Of a DNA stretch of 64,000 nucleotides, positions 3,011-51,400 are shown in pieces. Source of the DNA: an uncultured Thermoplasmata archaeon (lineage in GTDB: Archaea > Thermoplasmatota > Thermoplasmata > Lutacidiplasmatales > UBA184); the NCBI GenBank assembly GCA_963771555.1, contig CAVYTM010000003.1, positions 584,465-648,464 of the forward strand, in the 5' to 3' direction. The notes below the pieces were generated by a model, which worked only from the letters and a program-made list of their open reading frames with translations, searched no databases and was not told the origin of the DNA. A program made the translations under genes and the position numbers. How positions within the stretch are numbered: the first letter of the stretch is position 1; every line of letters starts with the position of its first letter.

Positions 3011-3045
3011 AGCCTTCATAACGCGAGGGCGGTAGGCCGCTCGCC

Positions 3046-27161: not shown

Positions 27162-27248
27162 GGTGGCTCGTCGCTCGCCCGCTCCTATAGCTATGATTAA
27201 GGCGGCGGCCCACCTCCCCGACCTCGTCAATCCAGGGGGTCAGTTGAG

Positions 27249-28205: not shown

Positions 28206-28206
28206 G

Positions 28207-28232
28207 CCTGGGACAGGGCGCCTTCTCCCAGG
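28207..28232. terminator. Hairpin between convergent genes
   Basis: CCTGGGA-N12-TCCCAGG sits directly after the GT2 stop and before the convergent GT-C gene end. No T-tract. Confidence 0.25.
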
Positions 28233-28286
28233 AACCACGCCGACCCTCTCCGCACGAACCGAGCGGGGGAAAACCCTGGGCCAGGA

Positions 28287-30992: not shown

Positions 30993-31001
30993 CGGGACGA
31001 C

Positions 31002-31967: not shown

Positions 31968-32152
31968 GGGGATCCTGGGACGCGCACGAATGGTGGAGCA
32001 CCCCGCGTGGCACAGGGTGCGCCGGTCATAATCCTGTTGGGAGGTCGACTCCCGTCGTGAGGGGGAAACGTCGCACGCGGGCACCCGGCAAGGCCCGTCC
32101 CTAGGTCCGGACCCGCCGCGTCGATCGCGGAGCCGAGGCCTCCTCCGGAGGA

Positions 32153-32845
32153 TCACCCGAGGGCGATGTAGCTGGCCGCAAACGGTTCGAGCGTCGAATA
32201 GGCGGAATCCTCGTACGCTCCGGTCACCACCCCTTTCGCCCAAGTCAGGAGCCCCTGGTACGATGTTCCATCCGTGAACGAGGACGGATACGCGGCCTGC
32301 AGGTCGGATCGGCTGTCGTAGATCATCATCAGGGCGTAGTAATAGCCGAACGGAGTGAGCGTCGAAGCCGCGCTGTCGGAGATCGTACCGTTGACCACGT
32401 TCCCGGCCCAATTGACCAGCTGTGTGAAGTTGGCGAGGCTGGTGAGCGCGTCCGGGAAGGCGGCTTGCAGGTCCGATCGGCCGTCGTAGACCAGTATCAG
32501 GGCGTAGTAGTAGCCGAACGGAGCGAGCGTCAGGCTCGCGCTGTCGGTCCACGCTCCTGTTGCCACGCCACCGGCCCAATTCACGAGCAGCGTGTAGCTG
32601 CCGAGGCTGGTGAACGCGTCCGGGAAGGCGGCCTGCAGGTCCGATCGGCCGTCGTAGACCAGCATCAGCGCGTAGTAATACCCGAACGGGGCGAGCTGCG
32701 TGCGGGCACTATCGGTCCACTCCCCCGTCACCACGCCCCCGGCCCAGTTCACCAACCCGAGGTAGGAAGTGAGGTTCGAGGACACATCCGGAAAGGCTGC
32801 CTGCAAGTCCGGTCGGTCATTGTACACGGTAAACAGCTCCGCGAT
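32153..32845 (-). repeat. 4 tandem 56-aa units forming the C-terminus
   Basis: 168-bp period visible in the DNA: 28 identical nt at 32467 and 32635. The array ends PFAASYIALG-stop. Confidence 0.9.
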
Positions 32846-35509: not shown

Positions 35510-35568
35510 GGTACTACTCCATGTTCAAACTTCATTCGCCCGCGGTTCTTGGGGCACTCGGTGTAGAA

Positions 35569-35575
35569 CGATAAA
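35569..35575 (-). promoter_or_regulatory. TATA box upstream of 32153-35509
   Basis: Minus strand reads GGGTTTATCG, about 63 nt upstream of ATG 35509. Same TTTATC core as other promoters here. Confidence 0.4.
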
Positions 35576-35749
35576 CCCATCGAAGTCCGGTCCACCGGGC
35601 ATCACACCCTCGCCCTGACTATCGCCCCTCCGTCGCCTTCGTCCTCTATCGACGAAGGCTGCCATGGCACGCGAGAGGGCCGGCCGGGAAGGGCGCAAGT
35701 CGCCTCCCGGTGGCTCGCGGGCGTAGCGACGCATCCAGGGGGTCGGCTC

Positions 35750-36442
35750 CTATCCTAGCGCCTCGTAACTCGCCGCGAAAAGCAAAAGTGTGGTCTTGGC
35801 GGAGTCCGTGATCGTTCCGCGCACTACGGCGTCCGCCCACGCGAGCAGTCCTGCGTAGGAGGCTCCGTCCGTGAACGCGAACGGGAACGCCGCCTGCAGG
35901 TCGGACCGACCGTCGTAGACCTTCAACAGGGCGTAGTAGTACCCGAACGGGGTGAGCTTCGCCATGTCGCTATCGAAGAATGAATCGTTGACCACCCAGC
36001 CGGCCCAGTTCACGAGCAGTGTGAAGTTGGTCAGGTTGGTGAACGCCTGCGGGAACGCCGCCTGGAGGTCCGTGCGGCCGTCGTAAACATTCATCAGGTC
36101 GTAGTAGTAGCCGAAGGGAGAGAGCGTCGCGTTGGCGCTGTCGACCCACTCTCCAGTAACGACGCCGCCCGCCCAGTTCACCAGTTGAGTGTAGTTGGTC
36201 AGGTTCCCATAGGGCTCGGTAAACGCCGCTTGCAGGTCCGAGCGACTGTTGTAGGTCATCAGTAGCGCGTACCAGTACCCGAACGGCGAGAGGTCCGAAT
36301 AATTGGTGTCGGAGAAGGCGTGCGTGACCACGCCTCCGGCCCAGTTCACGAGCCCCGTGAAATTAGTGAAGTTGATGAACGCGGCCGGGTACGCAGCCTG
36401 CAGGTCCGGCCGGTCGTCGTACACCGCATACAGCGCGGACAC
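35750..36442 (-). repeat. 4 tandem 56-aa units forming the C-terminus
   Basis: Units start AVYDDRPDLQ, ALLMTYNSRSDLQ, DLMNVYDGRTDLQ and ALLKVYDGRSDLQ. The array ends LFAASYEALG-stop. Confidence 0.9.
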
Positions 36443-38965
36443 TGGCGTCGGCGGTGTGTATTCCGAGCTGAACGTGATGTTGATCGGTTGGTGCGGGTCG
36501 GGCACCGTGACCGTTCCGAACGTAGGGGTCGAAGTATACCCCGGAACTGGACCGATCGTGAACTGGTAGCTGCCGGCGAACTCGGTGAATCCGATCAGCG
36601 GGGAGAAGGATGTCATCTCAGTGCCGTTGAGAGTAACGCTCCAAGGTGTTCCCTGGCGAAGGCCGGTCTCTTGGAAATCAACCGGGTAGCTAGGGACGGG
36701 TCCGACCGTGATGAGGGCGTCGCCGGTCGAATCCGACACGTAGAGATCGCCGGTCACCGGGTCGTATGCGATTCCCTCGACGTAGTAGCCTCCACCGGCC
36801 TCCAGGTAGAGGGGGCTTCCCGAGAGAGCGACGTAAGTCGTGGCGTTGAACGCATCGATCACGTTCTCGAAGGATTCGGCATTGTAGATCGTCTCGGTCC
36901 CGCTATCGTAGGCCAGGATGTACGGGTCGACGAGCGGCACCGAGTGGACCACCTTGAGGGTCGAGTCGTCGATCACGCTGACATTGCCCGAGCCCAGGTT
37001 GGCGACGAAGACGGTGTGGTTCTTCGAATCGACAACGATGGAGTCCGGTTCGCTGCCCACATCGATCGTCCTGAGTTTACTATCGTTCGACGCCCCCCAC
37101 ACGGTGACGTTGTTGTCGCCACGGTCGGCGGCGTAGACCTCGTTGGTGCGCGCGTCGTAGGCTATCGCGTCGAGTTGGGCGACGGGCTTGACCTTGAGGC
37201 TGGTGGTGTTCAACGTGTTGGTCGACGTATTGATGATGCTCACGTTGCCATTGTAGTCGTTGGCGACGAACAGCCGCTTGCTCGCGTTGTCGTAGGCGAG
37301 CGCGTCCGGATATTGTCCGACGTTGATCGTGGTCAGCAGCGTGTGGGAGGAGCTGAACACCTCCACGGCGGCCACGGCGGAGTCGGCGGTGTAAATGTCC
37401 CCGTTCGCCCCGTCGTAGGCGACGGGGGCCTCGACCGACGTACTTGTCGGATGCGGCCCACCGACGTCCACGCCGACCACTTGGTCTGCGGCGGCATTGA
37501 CCTCGTGGACGTCGTTGCCCGCCGAGTCCACGGAGTAGAGAGCTTTTTGGGCGGCGTCGTACGTCACGCCGGTCGGATAGACTGCGATCGGGATCGACGC
37601 GATGGAAAGACCGGTCGCTTCGCTGAGGACGGTAACGTTCGGCTCGAGATCCGAGGTCCCCCCGTTCGCCACGTAGCCGTCGCCGGTCCCTGGGTCGACA
37701 ATCACGGCATACGGACCGTCTTCGGTCGAAATGTTGGCGATCGATTTGTGCGTCGAGCCGTTGATCACCGTGATGTTGCCGATGCCACTCGGACCTCCAT
37801 TGTAGGCCGAAATGATCACGTTCCCATTCACCGCGTCATACGCGGTAGCGGACGGCCCGGCACCCTGGCCAATGATTCCGCTCGACGATACGACCGTGTT
37901 ACTCGGTTGCTGGATCACGGTGAGCAATCCTTGTCCACCCGCGACGAACAGTTGGTTCTGGGCCGGGTCGTACGCAAACGATTCCGCGTACAGCGCCACG
38001 GACACGTTGGTCACGACAGGTGCCGAGGCGGTAGCGGAGAACACACTGACATCGGCAAGCGAACGGCCGGTGTTGTTCAGCACGTCGATGAGGTCGTTCT
38101 TCGTGTCAATTGCGAGGGCTATCGGTTCGGGTCGCACCGTGGCGGACGCGACCACCCTGTTGGTGACGGGGTTGATGATCGAAACGTTGGAGGAACCATA
38201 GTTCGTGACGAATACCCGGTTGGCCGGTGAGTCGTAGGCCACCGCGAGGGGGTCGGTCCCTACGGGAATGCTCGCAACCGACTTGTTGGTGGTTCCCGAG
38301 AACACCGTGACGTTGGCGGTGCCGAAGTCGGCGACATACAAATCGTGGTTTCTCCAATCGAAGGCAATACCATGAGGGCCACCCCCGACCGGTAGCGAGC
38401 CGGTGACCGTCTCGGAGGTCCCGCTGATGATGCTCACGTTGGACGAGGACCCTGCGTTGGTGGCATAGAGAGTTCCCGTCTCGTTGTCCACCGCCACCGA
38501 GGGGACGTTGAAGGTCGCCTGATTGTCGACCGGAACGGGAATATTGGCCACGTCGGTGAACGTAGAGGCGTTGATCACCGAAAGGTCGTTGGCCGTGCCG
38601 CCGCGGACGTAGATGTTTCCGTTCGAGGGGTCGTAGGTCGCGGTTTCCTGCTGGAGATTGCTTTGAACCGGAAGAGCACCGGGGCCGGGATACGCTTGAT
38701 TCGAGGAAAGGTCCAGTCTCGATAGAACGACGCCAATCCCGCCGGAAGGGTTCAAGGCGGGGAGTGCCGCGGAAACCGTAACCGCCTCGTGGGAGGCCGC
38801 ATGTCTCGAGATCGTCCCGACGGTGGCTGGGACCCGGAGGACCGCGGGAGCAACGACCGTCGCCAAGAGCACGACCGCGACCAGGAGCACGAGAGCTGTC
38901 GGTACGAGCTTCGATGCACGGCGAAGGGGCGAACTCATCCCTGCGGCGAATCGAATTGCGTTCAT
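35750..38965 (-). CDS. Secreted surface protein: YVTN-family beta-propeller repeats, FxETGL beta-sandwich, 4 x 56-aa repeat
   Basis: Signal/anchor helix, then about 700 aa of ~40-residue repeats of the YVTN type (e.g. LYATNAGSSSNVSIISGTSETVTGSLPVG, RVFVTNYGSSNVSIINPVTNRVVAS, RLFVANDYNGNVSIINTSTNTL). VDFQETGLRQGTPWSVTLNGT... then the repeat array. Confidence 0.85.
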   Translation of the reverse strand: MNAIRFAAGMSSPLRRASKLVPTALVLLVAVVLLATVVAPAVLRVPATVGTISRHAASHEAVTVSAALPALNPSGGIGVVLSRLDLSSNQAYPGPGALPVQSNLQQETATYDPSNGNIYVRGGTANDLSVINASTFTDVANIPVPVDNQATFNVPSVAVDNETGTLYATNAGSSSNVSIISGTSETVTGSLPVGGGPHGIAFDWRNHDLYVADFGTANVTVFSGTTNKSVASIPVGTDPLAVAYDSPANRVFVTNYGSSNVSIINPVTNRVVASATVRPEPIALAIDTKNDLIDVLNNTGRSLADVSVFSATASAPVVTNVSVALYAESFAYDPAQNQLFVAGGQGLLTVIQQPSNTVVSSSGIIGQGAGPSATAYDAVNGNVIISAYNGGPSGIGNITVINGSTHKSIANISTEDGPYAVIVDPGTGDGYVANGGTSDLEPNVTVLSEATGLSIASIPIAVYPTGVTYDAAQKALYSVDSAGNDVHEVNAAADQVVGVDVGGPHPTSTSVEAPVAYDGANGDIYTADSAVAAVEVFSSSHTLLTTINVGQYPDALAYDNASKRLFVANDYNGNVSIINTSTNTLNTTSLKVKPVAQLDAIAYDARTNEVYAADRGDNNVTVWGASNDSKLRTIDVGSEPDSIVVDSKNHTVFVANLGSGNVSVIDDSTLKVVHSVPLVDPYILAYDSGTETIYNAESFENVIDAFNATTYVALSGSPLYLEAGGGYYVEGIAYDPVTGDLYVSDSTGDALITVGPVPSYPVDFQETGLRQGTPWSVTLNGTEMTSFSPLIGFTEFAGSYQFTIGPVPGYTSTPTFGTVTVPDPHQPINITFSSEYTPPTPVSALYAVYDDRPDLQAAYPAAFINFTNFTGLVNWAGGVVTHAFSDTNYSDLSPFGYWYALLMTYNSRSDLQAAFTEPYGNLTNYTQLVNWAGGVVTGEWVDSANATLSPFGYYYDLMNVYDGRTDLQAAFPQAFTNLTNFTLLVNWAGWVVNDSFFDSDMAKLTPFGYYYALLKVYDGRSDLQAAFPFAFTDGASYAGLLAWADAVVRGTITDSAKTTLLLFAASYEALG

Positions 38966-39005
38966 CGCGAGCTTGCCCAGCGGCCCCCTTGCGAGATCGC
39001 CTCGC

Positions 39006-39869
39006 CTATCCGCGTGCCTCGTACTCCGCCGCGTACGGCAGGAGAGTCGAGGACGATGAGTCCGTGAAGTCGCCGAGGACCATGTCGGCCGCCCAGGTCA
39101 GCAACCCCTGATAGGAGCCGCCGTCCGTCGCAGCCAGTGGGAAGGCCGCATTCAGGTCCGCGCGGTTCTCGTAGACCAGCCCAACCAGGGCGTAGAAGTA
39201 ACCAAAGGGCTGGAGAGTGGCGTTCGCGCTATCCGAGATGGTACCGTTCACCACCGCGCCGGCCCACCAGAGCAGTCCTCCCTCGGAATCCCAATTCGTA
39301 AAGGCATCGGGGAACGCGGCCTGAAGGTCGGAGCGGTTGTCGTAGATAGTCATCAGGTCGTAGTAATACCCGAACTTCTGGAGCGTCGAGTTGGCGCTGT
39401 CGTTCCACTCCCCCATCACCACACCCCCGGCCCAGTTCACGAGCAGCGTCCAGTTGGTGAGGTTGGTGAGTGCGTCTGGGAAGGCGGTTTGTAGGTCCGA
39501 GCGATTGTTGTACGTCAACATCAGCGCGTACCACGGACCGAACGGGGCGAGCGTCGATGCGCTGCTATCGGCGAACGAATCATTAACGGCGTTTCCTGCC
39601 CAATCCACGAGCTGACCGAACGTCGTCCACACGCCGTACGCGTTCGGGAAGGCCGCTCGCAGGTCGGCACGATCGTTGTATGTCGCCATCAAAGTGTACC
39701 AGAAGCCGTACGGGGCGAGCGTCGTGTAGTTGAGGTCGGAGATTTGTCCGTCGACCACGCTCCCCGCCCAGCTCACCAATTCGGTAAAGTTCGCGAAACT
39801 CCCGTTCGCGTCCGGGAAGAGGGTTTGCAGGTCCGGCCGTTGGTCGTAGACCGCATAGAGCTCGGCGAT
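39006..39869 (-). repeat. 5 tandem ~56-aa units forming the C-terminus
   Basis: Units start AVYDQRPDLQ, TLMATYNDRADLR, ALMLTYNNRSDLQ, DLMTIYDNRSDLQ and LVGLVYENRADLN. The array ends PYAAEYEARG-stop. Confidence 0.9.
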
Positions 39870-42818
39870 CGCGCCGATCACCAGTCCCCCTGGGCCCAGG
39901 GTGATGGTCACGTTCTCTCCACGCGCGGAATCGTAGACCGATAGCGGGCCGTTCGAAGGAGCCGCGGTGGAGCCTACCGGTGGAATCACTTCGTACCAGT
40001 ATACTCCGTACGGAACTGAGAACGTAATCGTTGAGGCGCTAGAATTCTCGGGGGTTCCATTCAGAAGTACAGTCCACGATGCACCGGGGGTCAATCCGGT
40101 CTCATTGAATGTGACGTTGTACGGCGTGGGCGTAACAAAGAAGGGTGCCGTCGTTCCGTTGTTCACGTTCGGGTCCGTCAAGTTCGTCCCGTTGACGACG
40201 ATGGTGTCGATCTGGGCGCCGGGGATTTCGGGGGTGAACGTCCCGGTGCAGGTCATATTCCCCCCAGGATAGATGTCATACCCCGGGCAAGAGAGCGGGC
40301 CGTCCAGACTACCAGTCGCGTTGATACTGTAGATAGCCGAGGTTCCCACATTGGTGATTGTGGTGTTATCCTCGACTTCATGACCCGCCGCCACGGGGTT
40401 CGGCGTGATCGTACTGGAGAGCTGAAGCGCGGAGGGGTTCGCGAGCGCGATGACCTCGGCCGCGCCGACGCTCACCGAGATGGCTGACGGGTCGAGGTTC
40501 ACGATCCGGAACGACGGGTCGATGGTCAGGGCAGCGCTTCCGAGCGCGGTGTCTTCCACCGTAGCACCGATCATCTCGGAAAGATAGAGTGAGTCCCCGC
40601 TCGAGATTGTTGTGTCCGGTCCGAAGAATACCGGAGGCGGGCTTTGGAAATCGAGCGATGCACTGCCCAGGGGGTTACAAACATACGACGGATCGGGCAG
40701 AAGGGGCGGACAGGTGCCGCAGGAGCCGGCGCATGCCTCAGCCCCGATACTCCCGGACGCGCAGGCGTAACCGTAACTGGTGGGCTGGTCCAGATCGCAC
40801 ATCTCGTAACTCCCCCCGGCAAGTGCCTCCGCGGCGCCCTGGCAGCCGCCGTTGCTGTCGTCGCAGTAGGCTTGGACGTCACCTGCGATGTTGAGCGAGA
40901 TCCCGAGGCAATCGAGCAGATTTCCCGGGTCGGGGTTGCCGGAAACGTCGCACTGCCCTGTGACAGTGACCGTATCGGCGATGAACACGGACCCAACGGC
41001 GTCACCGCCGTTGGTCGACGTCCCGGTCGCGGCAATCTCCCCCGTGGGTGCGTTTCCCATCACGCTGAAGGCGTCACTGGCGTCCACGGGCCCGTCGGAT
41101 CCAATGGCATATCCGCTCACGTGCTCGGAGAAGCTCGCGGTCTGAGTGCCCATCCCCCCCGTTTCTCCCGATGTGTTCTTGCAGAATTGGCAGGTCCAAC
41201 CGAACGGAAGTTCCGCGACGACGCCGTTCGCGAAGGCATCGAACTGGTCTCCGGCAAGGCCGATGGCCACGTTGTAGAACCCATACGTGGGCGCGTTCAG
41301 CGCATCGCCGTCGTACTGCGCACCCATGACGATGGGGGAAGAGCAACCCTGAAAGGAATCGCTGGGGCACGACGTATAGTAGATTGGGGGACTGTAGTAC
41401 GTGACGGAGCAAGTGCCGCCCACCAACGTGCAGGTGGTTGGCGCGAAGAACCCCGTCTTGGATGGCATGTACGTGTTGTAGGGGGTCCAAGTCACGACCC
41501 CCCTCGGGGAGCTACCGGTCACGTCCGCGGTGCAGCTGCTCGACGTCGTCACGAACGACGGATTGCAGGAAACAACGACGGTGGGGGTCGTGATGAGCAC
41601 GACCAGAAGCGAGTCGGTTCCTGAGCCAGCCAGATTGTACGTATCACCGCTGTAATCCCCCGTAATCGTGGGGAGGCCTGGCACGGAGTCGGCGTAAGAG
41701 ATTGTGCACTGGCTCGTCGTGTTCAGAGTGCAGGTCGTGGTGGGGGTGTAGCCGTACTCCGTGCCGAGCCAGACCCAGGTGAAGAACACCCCCGTGGTGC
41801 TGGAGGACGACCAGGTCACGGTGCCTGTGGGAGCGTACTCCGCTCCGGGGTCCGTTACAGTGGCCGTACAGTTCGAGGAGGCCCGTAGATAGTAAAAGGG
41901 GGCATAGGAATTGGACGTGCCAATCGGGTTCGGGGAGCAGCCGACCACGGTGGTGGTCTGGCCGCCCGTGTCCGTGAACTCGTTCGTCGAGGTGATGGCA
42001 CCAAATGCCGGGTCGGTGGCGATCACCGGATACGTTCCCGCCGGTACCGAGTCGGGAATCGTGAAATCGCAGGTGAACTTGCCCGTCGAGCTTGTGACAT
42101 CACTGCCCCCGGAGCACGCGATTGCCACTGAGTCAATCGTGATGGGACTGATGGTCGTGCTATTGGTGAAATAGGAGCCTCCGACACTCGTGGCGGTCCC
42201 CACGATGCCGGTCTGCGGGTACCCAATCGTGAGTTGGGGCACCTGCAGAGTGGCGCTGGTCGTCCTGAAACTTGTGGACCCGCAATCATTGTTAAAATCC
42301 TGGGCTGTGATGTTGTAGGTCGCGGGGACATACCCCGGGCCGGCCGGCGGCAGGACTAACTTCACACTGAAGGTGCCGTTGGAGGGCGACACGAAGGTCA
42401 CCGGCGCGGTTCCAGCAAACTGGTACGGGCCGGACTGGCCCGTCACACCCCAGTAGATGCTGAGAGTCGTGAAGTATGGGTAATACCCCGATCCGTTGAT
42501 CCAATATTGCACCCCACCGGGTCCGCTCGATTGGTTGACCTTCGCGGTGGCATGATTTCCGAAATTGCACGGATTGGGTGGCCCCCCCGCGAGGGTCAGG
42601 CGCCCACCCGGGTGGGGGCCTGACGTAGAAATCCCACCGAAGGCGGGAGGGAGCACGAACGCGAACCCAGAGACGAGGAGGCCGATCAGACCCACCACAA
42701 GAACGATCCTCCGTGAGTCAGGACGGCGGAACCTGCTTCCCTGAACTCGAGAGACGCCCTGTTGGTAGGAAGCTCCGGCGTTGTCCGGACGACTTCTTCC
42801 GACGTCACCAGTCTGCAT
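39006..42818 (-). CDS. Secreted surface protein: Ig-like/Cys-rich multidomain head, FNETGL beta-sandwich, 5 x 56-aa repeat
   Basis: Start taken at ATG 42818 (MQTGDVGRSRP...), which precedes a hydrophobic helix (IVLVVGLIGLLVSGFAFVL). The tracked start 42962 lies inside the palindromic motif. Several Ig-like modules carry Cys pairs, with a Cys-rich segment (CQGAAEALAGGSYEMC...CAGSCGTC). NVTFNETGLTPGASWTVLLNGT... then the repeat array. Confidence 0.85.
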   Translation of the reverse strand: MQTGDVGRSRPDNAGASYQQGVSRVQGSRFRRPDSRRIVLVVGLIGLLVSGFAFVLPPAFGGISTSGPHPGGRLTLAGGPPNPCNFGNHATAKVNQSSGPGGVQYWINGSGYYPYFTTLSIYWGVTGQSGPYQFAGTAPVTFVSPSNGTFSVKLVLPPAGPGYVPATYNITAQDFNNDCGSTSFRTTSATLQVPQLTIGYPQTGIVGTATSVGGSYFTNSTTISPITIDSVAIACSGGSDVTSSTGKFTCDFTIPDSVPAGTYPVIATDPAFGAITSTNEFTDTGGQTTTVVGCSPNPIGTSNSYAPFYYLRASSNCTATVTDPGAEYAPTGTVTWSSSSTTGVFFTWVWLGTEYGYTPTTTCTLNTTSQCTISYADSVPGLPTITGDYSGDTYNLAGSGTDSLLVVLITTPTVVVSCNPSFVTTSSSCTADVTGSSPRGVVTWTPYNTYMPSKTGFFAPTTCTLVGGTCSVTYYSPPIYYTSCPSDSFQGCSSPIVMGAQYDGDALNAPTYGFYNVAIGLAGDQFDAFANGVVAELPFGWTCQFCKNTSGETGGMGTQTASFSEHVSGYAIGSDGPVDASDAFSVMGNAPTGEIAATGTSTNGGDAVGSVFIADTVTVTGQCDVSGNPDPGNLLDCLGISLNIAGDVQAYCDDSNGGCQGAAEALAGGSYEMCDLDQPTSYGYACASGSIGAEACAGSCGTCPPLLPDPSYVCNPLGSASLDFQSPPPVFFGPDTTISSGDSLYLSEMIGATVEDTALGSAALTIDPSFRIVNLDPSAISVSVGAAEVIALANPSALQLSSTITPNPVAAGHEVEDNTTITNVGTSAIYSINATGSLDGPLSCPGYDIYPGGNMTCTGTFTPEIPGAQIDTIVVNGTNLTDPNVNNGTTAPFFVTPTPYNVTFNETGLTPGASWTVLLNGTPENSSASTITFSVPYGVYWYEVIPPVGSTAAPSNGPLSVYDSARGENVTITLGPGGLVIGAIAELYAVYDQRPDLQTLFPDANGSFANFTELVSWAGSVVDGQISDLNYTTLAPYGFWYTLMATYNDRADLRAAFPNAYGVWTTFGQLVDWAGNAVNDSFADSSASTLAPFGPWYALMLTYNNRSDLQTAFPDALTNLTNWTLLVNWAGGVVMGEWNDSANSTLQKFGYYYDLMTIYDNRSDLQAAFPDAFTNWDSEGGLLWWAGAVVNGTISDSANATLQPFGYFYALVGLVYENRADLNAAFPLAATDGGSYQGLLTWAADMVLGDFTDSSSSTLLPYAAEYEARG

Positions 42819-42869
42819 CGGCACTCTTCGGAGTTGCCAGCGGCTACTCGGGAGCGGGTAGCCTAGTCG

Positions 42870-42878
42870 GGGGATAAA
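42870..42878 (-). promoter_or_regulatory. TATA box upstream of 39006-42818
   Basis: Minus strand reads GATTTATCCCC, about 56 nt upstream of ATG 42818. Identical to the TTTATCCCC box at 47050. Confidence 0.45.
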
Positions 42879-42940
42879 TCCGTGTATAGGCGCATTCCGA
42901 GGTCTCAAGGGCCGGTACGGACAACGGTCCTCAGGGCGGC

Positions 42941-42966
42941 GCAGGTGCAACGGGCATTGCAACTAC
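42941..42966. promoter_or_regulatory. Second copy of the 26-bp palindromic motif
   Basis: Minus strand GTAGTTGCAATGCCCGTTGCACCTGC versus GTAGGTGCAATGTCCCTTGCACCTAC at 27136-27161 (22/26 identical). The motif ends 122 nt before ATG 42818, against 121 nt before ATG 27014. Confidence 0.65.
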
Positions 42967-42988: not shown

Positions 42989-43384
42989 CTAGATCTTGGG
43001 CGAAAGCCGGTTGATGGCGAACCAGCCTTTCCTGCCGGTCCTGTCACGACACCACAGCCAGCCGCTTTCAATATCGGCCTCGATAACGGTGACAACCTCG
43101 TTGCGGGACGGGTTCAGGGTGGTCGTGTCGTACCGATTCAGCGCCACCGCCTCGCGACCTCGTCGCTTCAGGTATCTTCGGGGAACCCAACCGCATTCAT
43201 TGGAGCCGTTGACCACGAGCACGAACGCGGGCCAGGTCCCGCTTCCCTGTTCCTCGGTCACCGTCAACGTGTCGCCGGGATTGACGACCAGCGGTCGCAA
43301 AGTAAGGCCGTCAAAGAAACCCGCAGGGAACGCCTCGGTCACTCGGAACTTCTTTCCCGGTTCGAATCCACGTTCGATTGTCAA
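42989..43384 (-). CDS. Tandem SH3-domain protein (cytoplasmic)
   Basis: 131 aa with no signal peptide. The second half, ALNRYDTTTLNPSRNEVVTVIEADIESGWLWCRDRTGRKGWFAINRL, follows the canonical SH3 pattern (ALxxYD ... hhxVhE ... GWW ... G.xGhhP.NYh). The first half (PGDTLTVTEE...ECGWVPRRYL) is a second, more divergent SH3. TTG start is uncertain. Confidence 0.65.
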   Translation of the reverse strand: MTIERGFEPGKKFRVTEAFPAGFFDGLTLRPLVVNPGDTLTVTEEQGSGTWPAFVLVVNGSNECGWVPRRYLKRRGREAVALNRYDTTTLNPSRNEVVTVIEADIESGWLWCRDRTGRKGWFAINRLSPKI

Positions 43385-43587
43385 GCGTTTCCAGCCTGGC
43401 CCAATATCCCAGAAGGGTCTCGCATTCCACGGAATGATGTGGTCTTAGCTCCTGCGTCGGGGTCTTCGATCTCGCAGCTGATGGGGTGACCGTCAAGGAC
43501 AGGCAGTTTCGAGTACGCGGTCGCCCCCAGCGTTCGCCGACTCCCTGAGGTTCGATCCCTCCCGGCGACTACGCTTCTAGACCGACC

Positions 43588-43595
43588 TTATTATA
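43588..43595 (+). promoter_or_regulatory. TATA box of 43610-46045
   Basis: TTATTATA sits 15-22 nt before ATG 43610. The spacing fits a leaderless transcript starting at or near the second ATG (43619, MFRGVL...). Confidence 0.5.
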
Positions 43596-43609
43596 CCGGG
43601 CCGCGCAAA

Positions 43610-46045
43610 ATGAGCCTCATGTTCCGAGGTGTGTTGGCCGTCGCTCTGACCGTCCTGTTTGTGGCATCCGCGCTTTTCGTCCTCGCCCCCGCGCAGACCC
43701 ACACCGCCACGAGCGCTGCCACCATGTCATCCCATACGACCGAAAGCACCCATCCGGCGGCCATGACCGTTACGATCCTCAACGGTTACGATTACCAAGC
43801 GACCGATTTCTATCCGGGCGAGACGGGTTGGGGTACCCTCTACTTTTCGGTCACCGACATCTTCGACTTGGGCGTGAACGTCACCATCATTGACCCGAAC
43901 GCGACACGGGACGGCGTTCCTTCTCCCGCATTCCACTACCACGCAATTCTGAACTCGACCACTTCGACCTTCAACTCGTACAGGGCGGGCGTAGGGTATG
44001 CCTTCCCTGCCACCCTACCGTATGGTGGCGGCTGGACCGTTAACCTTTCAGCCCCTGGCGGCGGGAGCGTCGTGACCAACGTCACGACGCTGGTCTACTA
44101 CGCGGAGCTCTCTTCCTCCATCGGCTACGGCGCGACCCTGCCCGGCCGACCGATGAGCTTGTTCTGGTCGCTCTACTCCGAAGCGAACGGAGCCGCGCTC
44201 TACACTCACGCGACCAACGTCTGGATCACGGGACAGTACGTCGGGAGCGGCGTGTCCCAGAACTTCTACCCGCAGGGCCGAGTGGCTCTAACACCCGCCA
44301 GCGCGGGACGGGGCCAGTGGAACGGGACCGTTCCGCCCAATGCGACTCCCGACTCTCAGATTTCCTTCGAGATTTATGCCATCACCAACGTGAGCGGTAA
44401 GATTGCCGAGAACGAGACGGCCCAGGTCAATGTTGATGTCGGTGCCCTTTCGATCGCCGGGTACGGGATCACTCTCGCGCCGCCGGTTTGCGAGCTCGGC
44501 AATAATTACTACTTTTCCACCGGTAGCCTGATCGCTGCGTGCATCGAGGCCGGCGCCAACTACAACGGGGCATTCAGTCCGATCTCCGGATTGCCGGTGA
44601 CCGTGGGCTACTGGAACGGTACAGCCCATGTGCACCCCGTGGGCGCCCCGACCTCGCTTTCCACCAATGCGCTGGGAGAGGCTGCCTTCACGTTCAACGC
44701 CACCGCACCGCCCTTCGTGCAGGAGTTCCAATTTCCGGGCTACGACGCATTGAACTTCACCGTAAACCTACCCGGGGCAAGCTCCCTCTACCGCTGGACC
44801 GTTTGGCAGAACGACACTTGGACCCTCGTGGGTTACAGCCCGTCGTCGGGCCTGGTACAGGTCCTGCTCGACCACACCGAGTACTATGTCGGCGATACGG
44901 CGACCGCCACCTGGTCGATCAGCACCACGGATCAACAGCAAACGGGCAACATCTCGGCGAGCAGTTGGGAGGTAATGGGGTCCTTTGGGACCGTGTACCA
45001 AACGGGCGTTCTGACCGGACACGCTCTCGGCGGGACGTTCAGCTTTCCGATCACCGAGGCGATGGTTCCGAACACCATCTGCGTGTACGTCTTCGCTTCG
45101 AACGCCACGAATAGTTTCGAAGGTTACGCCGATGCGTACGTCGAAACACCATCGCTGCTGCTCTCCCCCGGTTCCTACTACTACAGCGCCGGCACCACGG
45201 CGAATGTCGGTGTGGTGCTCAACGGTGGTGGCGCGGGCGCGCTGATCCAGTATCAGGCCTGGGGGTACTGGCAGGGTGAAGATGCCGTGGTCTCGAGCGG
45301 CACGGTCGCGAACGGAAGCACCATCGGGATCCCGATCCCCTCCACGACGCCCCCGCTCGATCTAGAGATCGACGCCTGGGCGACGCTCGGTGGCCAAGTC
45401 GTCGCGTCCAACGATGTTCGAATGGTTCTCGACCAGGGGTACTCCATCCAGCTGGGCGTGACTACGGCCTCGAGCTACGCTGACGGGAGCTACCAGCCCG
45501 GTCAGGCCATTACCCTCTCCTACCAGGTGGTGGCGGAAAACGGGGCGGCCCCACCGCAGGTCGTTTCGTTCGATCTCGTGGTCCTGGGGTATCCGAATTC
45601 CTACGTCATCCAAAACGTGGGGTTGAGCGGGACGATCCCGTTCACGATCCCGTCGAACGCGGTCCAAGGATCGCTACTTCTCGAACTCGAGGCAACGGGG
45701 GCCCTTCTCGCGGGTTCCTGCTTCGGGGGATGCTTCGGCATCACCACGATTCCCATCAACCCGAGCCCGTCCGTGCTCGGCCTCGAACTCGGAGCAGGAA
45801 GCGGAGTGACCGTGGGTTGGCTCATCCTCTTGGTCCTGGTGATCGTGGTGGCCGCGGTTCTCGTCCTCCTGCTCCGTCGTGGAGGTGGGCGCAAGCCGAC
45901 GACCTCCACGATGAGCCCCCCCGCTCCCCCTCCGTCCACGGAACCGGCGGCCGAGTGGACACCGCCCCCGCCTCCCCCACCCGGGCCCGAGCCCCCGGCG
46001 GACAGTTCTCCGCCGGGCCTGCCTGAGCCCCCGCCTCCGCGGTAG
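43610..46045 (+). CDS. Type I membrane glycoprotein (S-layer/surface protein candidate) with polyproline cytoplasmic tail
   Basis: Signal peptide, about 740 aa of beta-rich ectodomain with many NxS/T sites, a C-terminal helix (WLILLVLVIVVAAVLVLLL), then RRGGGRK and a 56-aa Pro-rich tail (PPAPPPS, PPPPPPPGPEPP, PGLPEPPPPR). Confidence 0.8.
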   Translation: MSLMFRGVLAVALTVLFVASALFVLAPAQTHTATSAATMSSHTTESTHPAAMTVTILNGYDYQATDFYPGETGWGTLYFSVTDIFDLGVNVTIIDPNATRDGVPSPAFHYHAILNSTTSTFNSYRAGVGYAFPATLPYGGGWTVNLSAPGGGSVVTNVTTLVYYAELSSSIGYGATLPGRPMSLFWSLYSEANGAALYTHATNVWITGQYVGSGVSQNFYPQGRVALTPASAGRGQWNGTVPPNATPDSQISFEIYAITNVSGKIAENETAQVNVDVGALSIAGYGITLAPPVCELGNNYYFSTGSLIAACIEAGANYNGAFSPISGLPVTVGYWNGTAHVHPVGAPTSLSTNALGEAAFTFNATAPPFVQEFQFPGYDALNFTVNLPGASSLYRWTVWQNDTWTLVGYSPSSGLVQVLLDHTEYYVGDTATATWSISTTDQQQTGNISASSWEVMGSFGTVYQTGVLTGHALGGTFSFPITEAMVPNTICVYVFASNATNSFEGYADAYVETPSLLLSPGSYYYSAGTTANVGVVLNGGGAGALIQYQAWGYWQGEDAVVSSGTVANGSTIGIPIPSTTPPLDLEIDAWATLGGQVVASNDVRMVLDQGYSIQLGVTTASSYADGSYQPGQAITLSYQVVAENGAAPPQVVSFDLVVLGYPNSYVIQNVGLSGTIPFTIPSNAVQGSLLLELEATGALLAGSCFGGCFGITTIPINPSPSVLGLELGAGSGVTVGWLILLVLVIVVAAVLVLLLRRGGGRKPTTSTMSPPAPPPSTEPAAEWTPPPPPPPGPEPPADSSPPGLPEPPPPR

Positions 46046-46278
46046 CGGTTCCCGGTCGCGCGAGAGCAACCCTGTACCCCGATTCCCCGGGGATTGCCCG
46101 GAGCACGCCCTGCGGGCCCGTGCGATTCCCAAATTGGGTAGATCGGGCCTTTGGGATCGTCTCTGACTCTGGACGTCAGTACGGTGTGCTCTCTATCACG
46201 CCCAGTGAGGCGCTCCGGGCGACATCGATCACCTTCCCTTCAGTGATCTTCAGGCCCACGTTTCGCTGGAGAGTGAAG

Positions 46279-46287
46279 TATCATATA
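46279..46287 (+). promoter_or_regulatory. TATA box of vapBC
   Basis: TATCATATA centred about 27 nt upstream of ATG 46310, giving a leaderless arrangement. Confidence 0.5.
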
Positions 46288-46288
46288 C

Positions 46289-46303
46289 TGCATGCTGCAT
46301 GCA
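46289..46303. promoter_or_regulatory. 15-bp palindrome over the predicted vapBC transcription start (candidate autoregulatory operator)
   Basis: TGCATGC-T-GCATGCA has perfect 7-bp arms and lies between the TATA box and the start codon. Confidence 0.5.
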
Positions 46304-46309
46304 ACCGGC

Positions 46310-46528
46310 ATGGTAGGCGAATCGACCTCGGTGCGGGTTTCCCGGGGGACACTTTCGGAGCTGGAACGGTTCCAGGTCGCTCTTCGCACGAGGACTGCGG
46401 ATGAAACCATTCGGTTCCTGTTGGTGAGCAGGCGAAAGGAGCTGATCGAGCAGTTGTATGGGAGTGCGCGAAGGAATCGCCCGTATCGGCCGTTCAGGGA
46501 GTCGGACCGACTTGAAGCTGATCGTTGA
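46310..46528 (+). CDS. vapB: VapB-like antitoxin
   Basis: A 72-78 aa ORF (alternative ATG at 46292) lies immediately upstream of, and overlaps, a PIN-domain gene. Family assignment is by context. Confidence 0.6.
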   Translation: MVGESTSVRVSRGTLSELERFQVALRTRTADETIRFLLVSRRKELIEQLYGSARRNRPYRPFRESDRLEADR

Positions 46529-46922
46529 TTCCTATGCCTGGATTGAATTCCTTTTGGCAGGCCCGCGGGGCCCCGAGGTCCGACGGCACTTCGAGGATCC
46601 CAACGACCTCATCAGCCCGGACATCGTTCTTGCCGAAGTGGCTCGCAGGTTGGCTCGTGAGGAGTCCGATCACGGCACCATTGCTGGACATCTGCGTTCG
46701 ATGACGGCGATTAGCACCGTCGTCCCCATCGATCCAGAAGTGGCGTTGGAAACGATTGAGGCGGCCCAGACCCTAAGAAGCTATGCACAACGGACACAGC
46801 TCAGCCAACCGAGCTTCGCCGACGCTATCATCCTAGCCTTCGCCCGACGACTGGGTGCGAGGGTTCTCACGGGAGACCGCCACTTCGAAGGCCTTTCCGA
46901 GACCGAGTGGATCGGTGCCTAA
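46512..46922 (+). CDS. vapC: PIN-domain ribonuclease toxin VapC
   Basis: LIVDSYAWIEF (first acidic residue), ...ADAIILAFARRLGARVLTGDRHF (C-terminal acidic residues) is the typical PIN layout. TTG 46512 overlaps the vapB stop. The tracked start 46458 is less likely. Confidence 0.8.
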   Translation: MKLIVDSYAWIEFLLAGPRGPEVRRHFEDPNDLISPDIVLAEVARRLAREESDHGTIAGHLRSMTAISTVVPIDPEVALETIEAAQTLRSYAQRTQLSQPSFADAIILAFARRLGARVLTGDRHFEGLSETEWIGA

Positions 46923-47049
46923 GCCAAGCCAACCGGCGCGTCACGGTAGGGGACGACAGCGTTTTTCGGCGCTCGGCTGGCGAAAAGGTGTAGGCCCAGT
47001 TGCACCCACTCACTCGAGAGTCGGTGGGCATCGCCCGTGTTTCCAGACC

Positions 47050-47058
47050 TTTATCCCC
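47050..47058 (+). promoter_or_regulatory. TATA box
   Basis: TTTATCCCC centred 28 nt upstream of ATG 47081, giving a leaderless arrangement. Confidence 0.5.
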
Positions 47059-47080
47059 ACAGAGTTTCATCGAACCCAGG

Positions 47081-47641
47081 ATGGTTCCCGGTAAAAGCGC
47101 GCCGAGAGGTCGCGGGCCTGCGCCCTCCTTGAGCGGAGTCGCTGCTCCCCCAACCAGGAACTACTACGTCCTCCGCGAGCCCAGCGTTGCGACCAGGGCG
47201 CTCCGGGTGAGCCTGATCTGGATCGTCATCGTTGTCTTCATGGCGACGGCCGACGCGCTTTCGCCGCAGACGTTTGTCCAGGTCTCCGCGTGGGTGGCAC
47301 TCTTCTTCCTTGGCGTCCTGCTCACGTTCTGGGCTCTCCTGAGCCTCTCTCGGGCGGCCGCCGCGACGGGAACGCTCATCGGAACCTTCCTTGGGCCGTA
47401 CAGCTTGACGTGGCAGCTCTGGGTGACCTACGCCAAGCACTGGAACGCGTTCTTCCCGGTCCGATTGTATCCTTTTACCATTGTCCTGGACGCGGTCGAG
47501 TGGTACGCGATGATGATGTTCGGATTCATCCTGCTCGCCGTGTCCATCACGGCACTGGTTCGCCTCTCGCGTCCTCGACTCATGTTCATTCGCGTCCACC
47601 ATGATTCGGGGGAAGCCTACCGGGTCGGCGATCCGCCCTGA
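47081..47641 (+). CDS. Small membrane protein, unknown function
   Basis: 186 aa from ATG 47081 with about 4 hydrophobic helices. The tracked start 47000 lies upstream of the TATA box. Confidence 0.55.
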   Translation: MVPGKSAPRGRGPAPSLSGVAAPPTRNYYVLREPSVATRALRVSLIWIVIVVFMATADALSPQTFVQVSAWVALFFLGVLLTFWALLSLSRAAAATGTLIGTFLGPYSLTWQLWVTYAKHWNAFFPVRLYPFTIVLDAVEWYAMMMFGFILLAVSITALVRLSRPRLMFIRVHHDSGEAYRVGDPP

Positions 47642-48491: not shown

Positions 48492-51400
48492 CTACGATGA
48501 CTTCTCTTCTTCCTCAGAGAGGTCTTCGCCCTCGGCGTCCTTCGGGACCTTTGACGGTTTCTTCAGGATCTCGCCGCTGATCTTGTCGAGCTCGGCCATC
48601 AGGGCGTCGATGTCGGGCTCTCCCTCGGCCCCGGGGGGCGGAACCGGCGGCGTTACGGGGACTCCGCCCGTGGGTACGGGCACCAAGGAGGGGCCGGCGT
48701 GCCCGACATCCTCGGGCATCTCGAGATAGTCGGGCGCGGGTCCGATCGGGGCACCCATCGGGGGCGACGGCTCCTCCTGCCAAACTTGCATCGGCGGCGC
48801 GGCCGCTGGCCGGGGTCGCCGCCGACGCAGGACGACCAGGGCCACGAGAATCAGCGCGAGGAGAACGACCACCGCGATCACGAGGTAGATCCAGAGGGAC
48901 GAAGAGCTCGAAGGCGACGTCACCGATACGGCCGGCGTTGCGGCGGACGTCGTGGTGACGGGCGAGGAGGCGCCGTCCGTCACCTGGAGCTGGAAGGAGT
49001 ACGTGTCACCGGAGGTCAGGGTGTTCGCCGGAATGGTGCAGGTTTCCGTGGCCCCGGCAGCTGCGCCCGTCCCGCCGTTCACGGCGCATTGAGTCGCGGA
49101 GTCGAACCCGCCACCGTTCACCGAGACGAGCCACTGCCATGCATAGTCCGGAGTGCCGGACGACGGGATCGTTCCCGTGATTGTCAACGCTTGATTGTTG
49201 TTCAACTGCGTGGCGCTCGAAGCCGGCGGGGTCGGTGCGGTCAGGGCGGGGTTGACCGTCACGGCCACCGCCGCCGACGCGCTGGAGGTCTCGGGCGTCG
49301 AGGCGCTGTCTGTCGCGGTGTAACAATAGTAGGTCGTACTCGTCGGGGTGGCGAGGTATGTCGCCGAGGTCGCACCCGAGAGCGGGGAACCGAGGGAGTT
49401 ACACGCGCTCGCGCTCGCTCCCGAATACCATTGGTAGCCGTAGCCGCTCGCCCCGCCCGAGGCGGTCGCGGTCAAGGTGATCGACTGACCTGCGTCCAGA
49501 GTGGGCGATGACGGCGTGGGGGTGCTCACCGACAGCGCGGAATTCGCCACCACGGCGGAGCTCGAACCCGACGTCGCGGTTTCGGCCGCGGAGGCGCTGT
49601 CGGATATCCGTAGTTCGAAAGTGTAGGTGGAGCCTGCGGTCAGCAGGTTCGGAGCGATGGCGCATGATTCGGTGGCGCCGCTCGTAGCTCCGGCACCACT
49701 GCTAACCGTGCACACGGCCGCTACCGAGAAGCTTCCACCGTTGACCGCAAAGAGCCAGTGCCAGGAGTAGGTAGGCGTCCCGGTCGACGGGATGGTCCCC
49801 ATCACCGTCAGGGCCTGGTTGACGTCCAGCATGGCCGCGCTCGCGGTGGGCGCAGAGGCCCCGGTCAACGCGGAATTCACGGTCAGTGTCGAGGTGGCCG
49901 ACGAGGTCGCGACCTCGGGGGTCGACGCGCTGTCCGTGACCTCGAGCTGGAAGGCGTAGTTGTCTTTCACCACGAGGGTGTTCGCCGCGATGACGCAGTT
50001 CTCCGCCGCGCCCCCGCTCGCCCCCGACCCACTGCCGACCGCGCATTGCGTCGCATCGGCAAAGGCGCCGCCGTTCACCGAGCTCAACCAGAGCCAGGAG
50101 TAGGAGGCCGTACCGTTCGTGGGGGTGGATCCGGTCACCGTCAATGCCTGGTCGGCATCTAGGCCGGTAGCGCTCAGCGCGGGCTTCACCGGCGCGGTGA
50201 GCGCCGTGCTCACCGACACTCCCGAAGAAGCGAACGACTTCTGCGTCTCTGGCGCGGAAGCGCCGTCCGTCACCTTGAGCTCGAAGGAATAGGAGTCCCC
50301 GGCCGTGAGCGTGCCGCTCGAGACCGTGCAGGCTTCGGTGGCCCCGGCCGTAGCCCCGCCACCGCTCGCCACGGTGCACTCCACCGCGGTGGAGTAGCCT
50401 CCGCCGTTCACCGATACCAGCCACTGCCAAGAGTAGCTGGACGTCCCGGTCGAGGGGAGCGTTCCGGTGACGGTCAGTACCTGGTCCGCGTCCAACGCCG
50501 GAGCGCTGATGGTGGGAGTTCCGGCCGGGGTCAGGGCCGAGCTCACGGCCACCGTGGACGAGCCGGCCGAGCTCTGCGTCTCGGGGGTCGTCGCACTGTC
50601 CGTGACCATCAAACTGAAACTGTAGGTGTCGCCGACAGTCAGGGCGCTCGCCGCGACGCTGCAGGTCTCCGGGACACCGCTGCTTGCCCCGATACCGCTG
50701 TTGGCGGCGCACTGCGTCGCATCGACAAATCCTCCACCGTTGACCGCGATCAGCCATTGCCAGGCGTAGGTCGATGTTCCGGTGGTCGGGATCGTTCCCG
50801 ATACCACCAGCGCCTGGTTCACATCGAGTTTTGCCGCGCTGGGGGTGGGCGTAGCGGGAGTCGCTAGCGCGGAGCTCACCGTTGCGGTCGAAGAGGTAGT
50901 GGAGATTACCGTCTCCGGGTTCGTTGCGCTGTCCGTTACCTGGAGTTCGAAGCCGTAGGTGTCGCCCGCGACGAGAGTGTGCGCCGGGATGAGGCACGTC
51001 TCAGCGGCAGCACCGGTGGCACCGACACCGCTGTTCACGACGCATACGGTGGAGGCGACGTCGGTGCCCGCATTGATCGAGACCAGCCACTGCCAGGAAT
51101 AGGTCGGAGTGCCCGTGGTCGGGATCGTTCCGTGCACGGTCAGCGGTTGATCCGCGTCGAGCAGCGTCGCGCTCACCGTCGGCGTGGCGGGCGCCGTCAA
51201 TGCCGTGTTCACGGTGACTTCGGTGACAGCCGAAGTGGCATTGTCGCTGTTGGAGTCCGTAACATTGTAGCAGTAATACGTCGGAGTCGTTGGGGCCGCC
51301 AAGTACGTCGAGGATACCGCCCCGCCAATCGGGCTGCTCAACGATAGGCAGGCAGGACCCGAGGCTCCGGAGTACCATTGGAAAGCGGTGTAGAGGGTCG

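Follow-up and report, generated by a model that had tools for sequence, protein, structure and literature searches.

An intracellular tandem-SH3 protein beside proline-tailed surface proteins in an uncultured Thermoplasmata archaeon: a possible SH3-polyproline adaptor

The recognition of PxxP motifs by SH3 domains is a hallmark of eukaryotic signalling and of membrane-cytoskeleton coupling. A 64,000-nucleotide stretch of an uncultured Thermoplasmata archaeon (GenBank assembly GCA_963771555.1, contig CAVYTM010000003.1, positions 584,465 to 648,464; hereafter the window) encodes a protein of 131 amino acids (aa) with two SH3-like halves, beside membrane proteins whose C-terminal tails are rich in proline, and thereby raises the question of whether such tails are read by SH3 domains inside an archaeal cell. 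Prokaryotic classical SH3 domains are usually described as extracellular binders of the cell wall, and it was only in eukaryotes, according to the current view, that they were turned to reading motifs inside the cell (PMC5906684). The G+C content of the window is 60-70%, and the nearest relatives in the databases, all metagenome-assembled genomes, carry the label "Thermoplasmata archaeon". We found that the 131-aa protein is a genuine tandem of two classical, eukaryote-type SH3 domains located inside the cell, and we tentatively propose that it acts as an adaptor for the proline-rich tails.

An intracellular tandem of classical SH3 domains

The gene lies at 42989-43384 on the minus strand. A model working from the letters alone (the sequence-only reading) had described this open reading frame (ORF) as lacking a signal peptide and containing two SH3 halves; the coordinates and both features were confirmed, and neither a hydrophobic N-terminus nor a signal peptide was found in the 131-aa translation. 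The longest ORF starts with TTG, and the NCBI entry for the gene, a 117-aa "SH3 domain-containing protein", starts from the GTG at codon 15, which leaves the start codon uncertain. In homologues of 79-92% identity, residues 1-14 are conserved.

The SH3 assignment was upheld both by searches with hidden Markov models and by structure prediction. Matches to four Pfam SH3 families, all above the curated gathering thresholds, covered both halves of the protein. The first half, SH3-A (residues ~12-75; 43160-43351, minus strand), was matched by SH3_3 (residues 33-73, 29.4 bits against a cut-off of 27) and aligned to the SH3 domains of Abl, Src, and SLA1. The second, SH3-B (residues ~78-129; 42998-43153, minus strand), was matched over residues 83-122 by SH3_2 (E = 5.9e-11, 42.3 bits against 21.8), SH3_9 (32.3 bits against 30), and SH3_1 (23.9 bits against 22.9). 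When the family profile was searched against PDB sequences, only eukaryotic SH3 domains were returned, the tandem SH3 of p47phox coming first (E = 3e-7) with its SH3-A as the best match of the archaeal SH3-B. The AlphaFold2 (AF2) model, made with 51 homologues, consisted of two beta-barrels (mean predicted local distance difference test score, pLDDT, 85.7; predicted template modelling score, pTM, 0.76), built from two sets of beta-strands, each then followed by a short helical turn (HHH in DSSP). The pTM suggests that the two modelled domains have a defined mutual orientation. In Foldseek, one domain of the model superposed on the SH3 domains of Abl, Fyn, Src, and Vav at ~1.5 A over 43-45 residues with probability 1.0, and SH3-peptide complexes were among the matches; the E-values were only ~1e-2, no more than a match of 44 residues would lead one to expect.

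The ligand pockets of the two domains were read from alignments and not from the structure of a complex. In SH3-A, the equivalents of the canonical pocket residues are F19, W51, W66, P68, and Y71, and its segment GWVPRRYL corresponds to GWVPSNYI of Abl; across the 51 homologues W51, W66, and P68 never vary, and conservation of F19 is at least 90%. SH3-B follows the pattern ALNRYD...ESGWLWC...GWFA, with Y85 and W109 of the pocket kept and the Pro and Tyr of the 3-10 helix replaced (A123 and R126). Throughout the family this Pro position is Ala or Pro and the Tyr position is replaced. The RT loop of SH3-B is short, non-acidic, and highly conserved (YDTTTLNP), and Cys112 is invariant. The strongly conserved blocks of the family alignment are W51-P-A-F-V, G65-W-V-P-x-R-Y-L, Y85-D-T-T-x-L, and E-S-G-W109-L-W-C112. 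By residue count the protein is net basic, with 19 K/R and 15 D/E.

Homologues of the protein formed 55 clusters at 90% identity, and a search of 50%-identity representatives at E<=1e-10 brought up 421 members, the majority of which stand alone and are 110-130 aa long. According to genome and metagenome scans, the family is spread over Thermoplasmata, Nitrososphaerales/Thaumarchaeota, Acidimicrobiia, Gaiellaceae, Nocardioides, Curtobacterium, Myxococcales, and others, and its carriers include the cultured bacteria Nocardioides donggukensis and Curtobacterium sp. The module is thus no archaeal rarity but part of a broad prokaryotic family, and the earlier statement that bona fide SH3_1-like domains are uncommon in archaea found no support here. 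The longer members, none of which has a signal peptide, are fusions to cytosolic enzymes or domains, namely an arylamine N-acetyltransferase, a HAD phosphatase, two alpha/beta-hydrolases, a cupin, a hemerythrin-like domain, an alpha-amylase family protein, and PAS. They occur in both bacteria and archaea (proteins P0122, P0127, P0131, P0148, P0158, and P0178; loci L016 at 964-3879, L021 at 199-2529, and L028 at ~800-2344). As there is no signal peptide and family members are fused to cytosolic enzymes, the SH3 module is intracellular.

A search of the SH3 protein against NCBIfam gave nothing significant, and no dedicated Pfam family exists for it; the match to TIGR04211 (YgiM) was weak (22 bits against a cut-off of 65), and several homologues carry the JGI label "YgiM (DUF1202)". 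In the literature on SH3 domains in Thermoplasmata and archaea, or together with polyproline, neither the SH3-SH3 family nor tails of the kind described below were found. The module belongs to a large, uncharacterised family of prokaryotes, with ~420 clusters and an intracellular location.

Two further features of the fusions were observed. The PAS fusion of the SH3 pair also carries a Cys-rich C-terminal motif, and in several fusions a Pro-rich linker immediately precedes the SH3 pair (e.g., PYVPPPAEAAP and TPVPPVDWP). Such linkers could serve as intramolecular SH3 ligands.

Proline-rich tails and their recurrence beside SH3 genes

Divergent from the SH3 gene and separated from it by 225 nt (43385-43609) is the gene of an 811-aa type I membrane glycoprotein-like protein (43610-46045, plus strand). 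From a TATA-like TTATTATA ~20 nt before its ATG and a GATATT ~20 nt before the SH3 TTG, both read from the sequence, we infer candidate promoter elements. The protein has a signal-like helix at its N-terminus and a large ectodomain (Pfam A2M_BRD, 26.6 bits), and a C-terminal transmembrane (TM) helix at residues 733-755 (45806-45874, plus strand; best 19-residue hydropathy window 3.5) is followed by RRGGGRK and a 56-aa tail (45875-46042, plus strand). The sequence-only reading had been right about the divergent gene, the 225-nt gap, the type I topology, the basic cluster, and the length of the tail; the tail is indeed Pro-rich, and only the description "mostly proline" was a slight overstatement (43% Pro).

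The 811-aa protein belongs to a family restricted to Thermoplasmata, comprising 64 homologue clusters of 36-100% identity, nearly all ~810 aa long and with Thermoplasmata as every existing source name. Among the ~60 homologue tails listed, 43-71 aa come after the TM helix in essentially every full-length member. The tails share the motifs RRRGGR, PPAPxPS (in the family (M/N)PPAPxPS), a near-invariant EW, a Pro-rich spacer, and, near the C-terminus, PP(G/P)LPxPP (in the family (S/P)PP(G/P/L)LPxPP). In the consensus, EW is at least 90% conserved and PPLPxPP 80-90%, and the motifs persist down to 36-46% overall identity. In the 811-aa protein, PPAPxPS and PPxLPxPP lie ~25-30 residues apart and flank the invariant EW.

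The second Pro-tailed protein of the window is a giant surface protein of 3489 aa (48492-58961, minus strand), which lies 2.4 kb beyond the 811-aa gene and 5.1 kb from the SH3 gene. It contains PKD (Pfam E = 3e-75), Y_Y_Y (E = 1.4e-48), and filamin repeats, and has a signal-like N-terminus and a single C-terminal TM anchor. Its 111-aa cytoplasmic tail (48495-48827, minus strand) consists of RRRRPRP, a Pro-rich stretch with VWQE, YLEMPEDVG, a Pro-rich linker, a DIDALMAELDKISGEILKK helix, and an acidic end. The giant had been said to end in the same way as the 811-aa protein; the TM helix, the basic cluster, the Pro-rich stretch, and the acidic end were all found, but by sequence comparison the tail is a conserved module distinct from the poly-Pro ending of the 811-aa protein. 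The last 135 aa of the giant have homologues in small type I membrane proteins (~170-210 aa) that make up a family of 81 clusters and are laid out as a signal peptide, a ~30-aa ectodomain, a TM helix, RRRRPP, a Trp in a Pro-rich stretch, YLETPEDVG, an Ala/Gly/Pro linker, EPDIDSLMAELDKISGEILKK, and an acidic end. Several blocks of this tail are at least 90% conserved across the 81 clusters. The profile of the giant-type tail matched the giant with E = 2e-40. It matched the 296-aa proteins of loci L011 and L012, treated below, with E = 6e-7 and the 811 family with E = 8e-4 to 9e-3, in both cases over the TM-RRRR-PP...W...PP segment only.

The TM-plus-tail module of the giant (48495-48899 in the window) thus has a second existence as a strongly conserved family in its own right, seen for instance at L105 (8001-8579) and L106 (8001-8594), where the small genes stand in a conserved context between a Polysacc_synt flippase-like gene and a gene with a VTT/DedA domain. 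The predicted amphipathic helix at the end of the giant-type tail suggests that this tail may have a cytoplasmic partner of its own.

For both proteins, the signal-like N-terminus, the single C-terminal TM helix, the basic cluster, and the confinement of N-glycosylation sequons to the ectodomain agree with a cytoplasmic orientation of the tails, as the sequence-only reading had supposed: there are 16 sequons in the ectodomain of the 811-aa protein and 12 in that of the giant, and none in either tail. Conservation of the tail motifs in dozens of homologues shows selection on the tails, and the presence of conserved short motifs in a disordered cytoplasmic tail implies a cytoplasmic reader. The distal parts of the tails are acidic, and the conserved motifs are flanked by Glu/Asp and a Trp. 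Candidate ligand segments for the SH3 protein are PPAPPPSTEPAAEWTPPPPPPP, SSPPGLPEPPPPR, MSPPAPPPSTEP, and EPAAEWTPPPPPPPG, together with RRRRPRPAAAPPMQVWQEEPSPP in the tail of the giant. Two other origins of the tails were considered. An artefact of high G+C was rejected, since the specific motifs are kept in frame in dozens of homologues and G+C at third codon positions exceeds that at second positions in all genes. A sorting signal of the archaeosortase type was excluded, as 31-111 conserved residues follow the TM helix and no PGF- or PEF-type motif precedes it.

The divergent arrangement of the SH3 and 811-aa genes, 225 nt apart, is shared by the window and L005, whose SH3 protein is 92% identical; this was the only locus that retained the specific pair. 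Conservation of the pair beyond this closest relative was rejected, as it is absent from L006, L034/L035, and L107 (81-82% SH3 identity) and, seen from the 811 side, from L031-L033. Other Pro-tailed proteins adjoin the SH3 gene elsewhere. At L011 and L012 (SH3 43-46% identical), a glycoprotein-like type I protein of 296 and 289 aa, respectively, is encoded divergently ~300 nt from the SH3 gene and ends with RKKK and PPPPP...W...PPPPPPP, ...VMRKKKGTPPPPPMGQPGQPAWGAPPPPAGGPQTWQNPPPPPPPGTG. At L015, an unrelated 843-aa Kelch/PKD protein, encoded directly upstream of SH3, ends with RRK...PPPPPPT, ...FRRKTALGGGGPPPSVTGGPPDTLVPPPPPPT. At L006 (81%), the ORF immediately upstream of the SH3 gene is truncated at the edge of the contig; its Pro/acidic tail ends in ...SFMAEIDRISDAIVRKPAKP and matches the giant/small-family tail profile with E = 8e-8. 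The 811-aa, 296-aa, and 843-aa neighbours are not homologous to each other. Accordingly, of the SH3-polyproline adaptor system that had been suggested to couple envelope proteins to an intracellular partner, the tandem SH3, the conserved tails, and a recurrence of the pairing (at L011/L012, L015, and L006) stood, whereas the SH3/811 pair itself was limited to L005 and most SH3 loci were without any pairing.

The adjacency was assessed by a census of 28 archaeal loci centred on SH3 genes, which together hold 230 genes encoding at least 100 aa, the criterion being a Pro-rich tail that follows a TM helix and basic residues. Such tails were found only in immediate SH3 neighbours and in the giant at 5.1 kb, and in none of the remaining ~185 genes; ordinary C-terminal anchors in these loci had short, Pro-poor tails. 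Fisher's exact test gave p ~0.001-0.02 after related loci had been collapsed, the range being set by which borderline cases were counted. This statistic is suggestive, not conclusive. A thermopsin-PKD neighbour at L108, with a tail of just 12 aa (RRRKRAPPSGPA), was treated as borderline. A 165-aa neighbour at L107 looked like the giant type in its helix by eye; its profile match was not significant and it was not counted.

The adaptor reading and its alternatives

We propose that the SH3 protein is a cytoplasmic adaptor recognising Pro-rich motifs in the tails of surface proteins, a reading to which, from what the sequences offer, we give slightly less than an even chance. As a soluble SH3-SH3 protein lacking an effector domain, it would read Pro/Trp short linear motifs in type I proteins, the candidate clients being the 811-aa glycoprotein family, the giant PKD protein and its small relatives, and analogous proteins of Thermoplasmata. 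Bivalent binding seems likeliest because there are two SH3 domains, no effector domain, and, in the 811-aa tail, two conserved Pro motifs ~25-30 residues apart, a spacing that fits two rigidly coupled SH3 domains. The two domains would either clamp two motifs of one tail or cross-link two tails, in which case envelope proteins would be clustered or positioned from inside. The identity and fold of the SH3 domains, their place inside the cell, the conservation of the tail motifs, and the recurrent adjacency are what the analysis showed; the binding of tails by the SH3 protein and its consequence for the cell are what we infer. In favour of such binding, the best PDB sequence match is the p47phox tandem, which itself binds a Pro-rich membrane-protein tail; SH3-A appears to retain the majority of the canonical PxxP-pocket positions, several without variation in the 51 homologues; the pairing recurs with non-homologous Pro-tailed proteins, and in the census such tails were confined to SH3 neighbours and the giant; and the tails are conserved, those of the 296-aa, 811-aa, and giant families matching one profile. 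The charges would be reversed relative to typical eukaryotic pairs, the SH3 protein being basic and the distal tails acidic, which is consistent with the lack of a conserved basic residue beside the PxxP cores.

Several observations weigh against this proposal. No basic residue is conserved in the tails at the position that a class I or class II ligand (+xxPxxP or PxxPx+) would have it, and, in the alignments, SH3-B is missing two canonical pocket residues. The weak profile matches among the different tails may in part reflect TM and poly-Pro composition. The adjacency statistic rests on 3-5 independent events, with a tail criterion that was fixed after the first cases had been seen. At L034 and L035 (81%) the gene upstream of SH3 is NUDIX-like, as judged by reading its translation, and at L107 (82%), L001 (63%), and L003 (56%) the SH3 neighbours are unrelated; adjacency was likewise absent at L036/L037 and at all Nitrososphaerales and bacterial loci examined. 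In the reverse direction, no SH3 gene was found within 8-10 kb at the three 811-family loci (L031-L033) or at the two small-family loci (L105-L106). The SH3 family is also far wider than the Pro-tailed proteins, and because it occurs in Actinomycetota and Myxococcales as well, the Pro-rich tails cannot be its ligand in general. The adaptor case gains from the recurrence of the pairing and the conservation of the tails, and it is weakened because the pairing is not universal and the SH3 family is broad.

The breadth of the family fits another explanation, which we consider possible without expecting it to prevail: the protein would be a generic intracellular peptide-binding SH3 module with ligands elsewhere, such as Pro-rich soluble proteins or enzymes, and its adjacency to Pro-tailed genes would be a coincidence or a matter of location in a surface island. 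Most of the ~421 representatives are stand-alone bacterial proteins of 110-130 aa, the fusions are to unrelated cytosolic enzymes, and all-against-all clustering of flanking ORFs showed no neighbour common to all SH3 loci (28 or more). The SH3/811 pairing is already gone at 81% SH3 identity, and a ~16-kb insertion downstream of SH3 relative to L005 marks the neighbourhood as plastic. Coincidence is harder to reconcile with the rarity of Pro-tailed type I genes, which apart from the giant were 0 of the ~185 non-adjacent genes and yet flank SH3 in 3-5 independent lineages, with a different ectodomain each time; SH3 domains were, moreover, the sole recognised poly-Pro readers detected in this analysis.

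The enzyme fusions bear on a further possibility as well, namely that the tandem barrel is a sensor or regulator for a non-peptide ligand (a small molecule, a redox signal, or a nucleic acid) and resembles SH3 in structure only, with the invariant YDTT.L and ESGWLWC segments, including Cys112, forming a different kind of site. In its favour, the fusions to PAS, hemerythrin, cupin, and metabolic enzymes look like sensor architectures; SH3-B, with its invariant Cys and its short, non-acidic, highly conserved RT loop, has lost two residues of the poly-Pro pocket; and many SH3-fold proteins, such as Sso7d, FeoA, and the C-terminal domain of DtxR, bind other ligands. We nevertheless judge a sensor unlikely, as the sequence matches are specific to classical peptide-binding SH3 domains and not to SH3-like folds in general, SH3-A keeps GWVP..Y and the Trp pocket, and the adjacency to Pro-tailed proteins would be left unexplained. 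Less probable still, in our estimate, is that the tails serve a purpose unconnected with any SH3 protein, as rigid spacers, as sorting or processing signals, or as docking sites for another factor, for which the amphipathic DIDSLMAELDKISGEILKK helix of the giant-type tail would be the candidate. The strongly conserved non-Pro motifs of that tail (YLETPEDVG and the helix) and the occurrence of its small relatives in a conserved Polysacc_synt/VTT(DedA) context with no SH3 gene speak for such a role; at 31-111 aa after the TM helix, however, the tails are far longer than archaeosortase-type signals, and a function of this kind is compatible with SH3 binding to the Pro/Trp segment, so that it overlaps with the adaptor reading rather than replacing it.

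We advance the fuller form of the adaptor reading as a tentative and somewhat doubtful proposition: in some Thermoplasmata there may be a true intracellular SH3-polyproline system, in which a bivalent adaptor would read conserved Pro/Trp motifs in the cytoplasmic tails of several unrelated glycoproteins, among them a giant PKD adhesin-like protein and a lineage-wide protein of ~810 aa, and the ~420 clusters of the family may be a radiation of classical SH3 domains inside prokaryotic cells that has so far been overlooked. This would go against the view that prokaryotic classical SH3 domains act outside the cell (PMC5906684). The intracellular module already departs from the usual picture of such domains as extracellular. 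If the tails are read by SH3, archaea and bacteria would possess, independently of eukaryotes, an adaptor logic built on short linear motifs. Such reading would also give a testable function to two uncharacterised classes, the SH3-SH3 family and the Pro-rich tail modules (those of the 811 family and of the small proteins and giant), and a handle on how envelope proteins are organised or turned over from the inside in uncultured Thermoplasmata.

The wider locus and comparison with known systems

Downstream of the SH3 gene, a ~16-kb block (27100-42962) encodes three large secreted proteins of 1318, 1071, and 1118 aa, two GT2 glycosyltransferases, and a 901-aa multi-TM protein (39006-42962, 35750-38965, 32153-35509, 31002-32579, and 28287-30992 on the minus strand; 27249-28205 on the plus strand). 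Compared with L005, L034, and L035, which are close relatives, the block is an insertion; in these the SH3 gene is directly followed by homologues of 26517-27014 (165 aa) and 25375-26451 (358 aa) of the window. The block looks like a variable surface/glycosylation island. Being inserted, the 1318-, 1071-, and 1118-aa, GT2, and 901-aa genes are uninformative on SH3 function, and an operon with the three large downstream genes was rejected as a functional clue. The C-termini of the three secreted proteins (39006-39800, 35750-36500, and 32153-32900) carry 3-5 tandem copies of a ~56-aa repeat (...DLQAAFPDAFTNLTNYTxLVNWAGGVVTGxWxDSAxxTLxPFGYYYxLxxxYDxR...), with copies 50-60% identical between the proteins. 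The repeat region had no Pfam match and the three proteins have no C-terminal TM helix; the repeat may anchor these proteins non-covalently to the cell surface.

Between the 811-aa gene and the giant lies a gene with a PIN domain (VapC-like; 46458-46922, plus strand; Pfam PIN, E = 1.4e-13), preceded by a 94-aa ORF (46120-46404) that has a weak coding signal and was not identified as an antitoxin. A multi-TM protein of ~170-210 aa ending in ...IRVHHDSGEA(Y/F)R(V/L)GDPP is encoded at 47000-47641 (plus strand), 3.6 kb from SH3, and at L050 (162-668, minus strand) its counterpart abuts the 3' end of an SH3 fragment of 84% identity; this gene may be another recurrent SH3 neighbour. Loci L011, L012, and L015 share a ~840-aa gene downstream of SH3, whose product resembles topoisomerase I, as judged from reading the sequence.

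Among known systems, the bacterial SH3b/SH3_3/YgiM (TIGR04211) proteins are likewise prokaryotic members of the SH3 clan. Bacterial SH3b-type domains work outside the cytoplasm, either secreted or in the periplasm, where they bind peptides of the cell wall, and many are joined to peptidoglycan hydrolases (PMC5906684), whereas the family described here lacks signal peptides, is fused to cytosolic enzymes, and does not have the defining features of extracellular SH3b proteins. On the side of the tails, the archaeosortase/exosortase signals (PGF-CTERM, PEF-CTERM, and PEP-CTERM) also present a C-terminal TM helix followed by a basic cluster in archaeal surface glycoproteins; in them a signature motif precedes the TM helix and the chain stops within a few residues of the basic cluster, and the tails described here differ on both counts.

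Eukaryotic adaptors such as Grb2, Nck, Crk, and CIN85 share with the 131-aa protein the classical SH3 fold and, as far as the alignments show and for SH3-A above all, the pocket residues, and bridge Pro-motif partners in the effector-less way proposed for it. Their SH3 domains are combined with SH2 or other modules and use acidic RT loops to read +xxPxxP or PxxPx+, in contrast to the archaeal protein, which is net basic with non-acidic RT loops and faces tail motifs flanked by Glu/Asp and Trp. In the assembly of NADPH oxidase, the tandem SH3 of p47phox (NCF1) binds the Pro-rich cytoplasmic tail of the membrane protein p22phox. Like the archaeal protein, p47phox, its best sequence match in PDB, has two adjacent classical SH3 domains joined by a short linker, with ESGWWFC...KRGWIP where the archaeal protein has ESGWLWC...RKGWFA, and the ligand proposed here would also be a Pro-rich cytoplasmic tail of a membrane protein. 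p47phox further contains PX, autoinhibitory, and Pro-rich regions and is controlled by phosphorylation, whereas the archaeal protein is SH3-SH3 only, and the order of best matches is swapped, the archaeal SH3-B matching p47phox SH3-A, with no evidence of orthology. By analogy, the p47phox tandem SH3 bound to the p22phox tail would be the closest functional counterpart of the system proposed for this locus.

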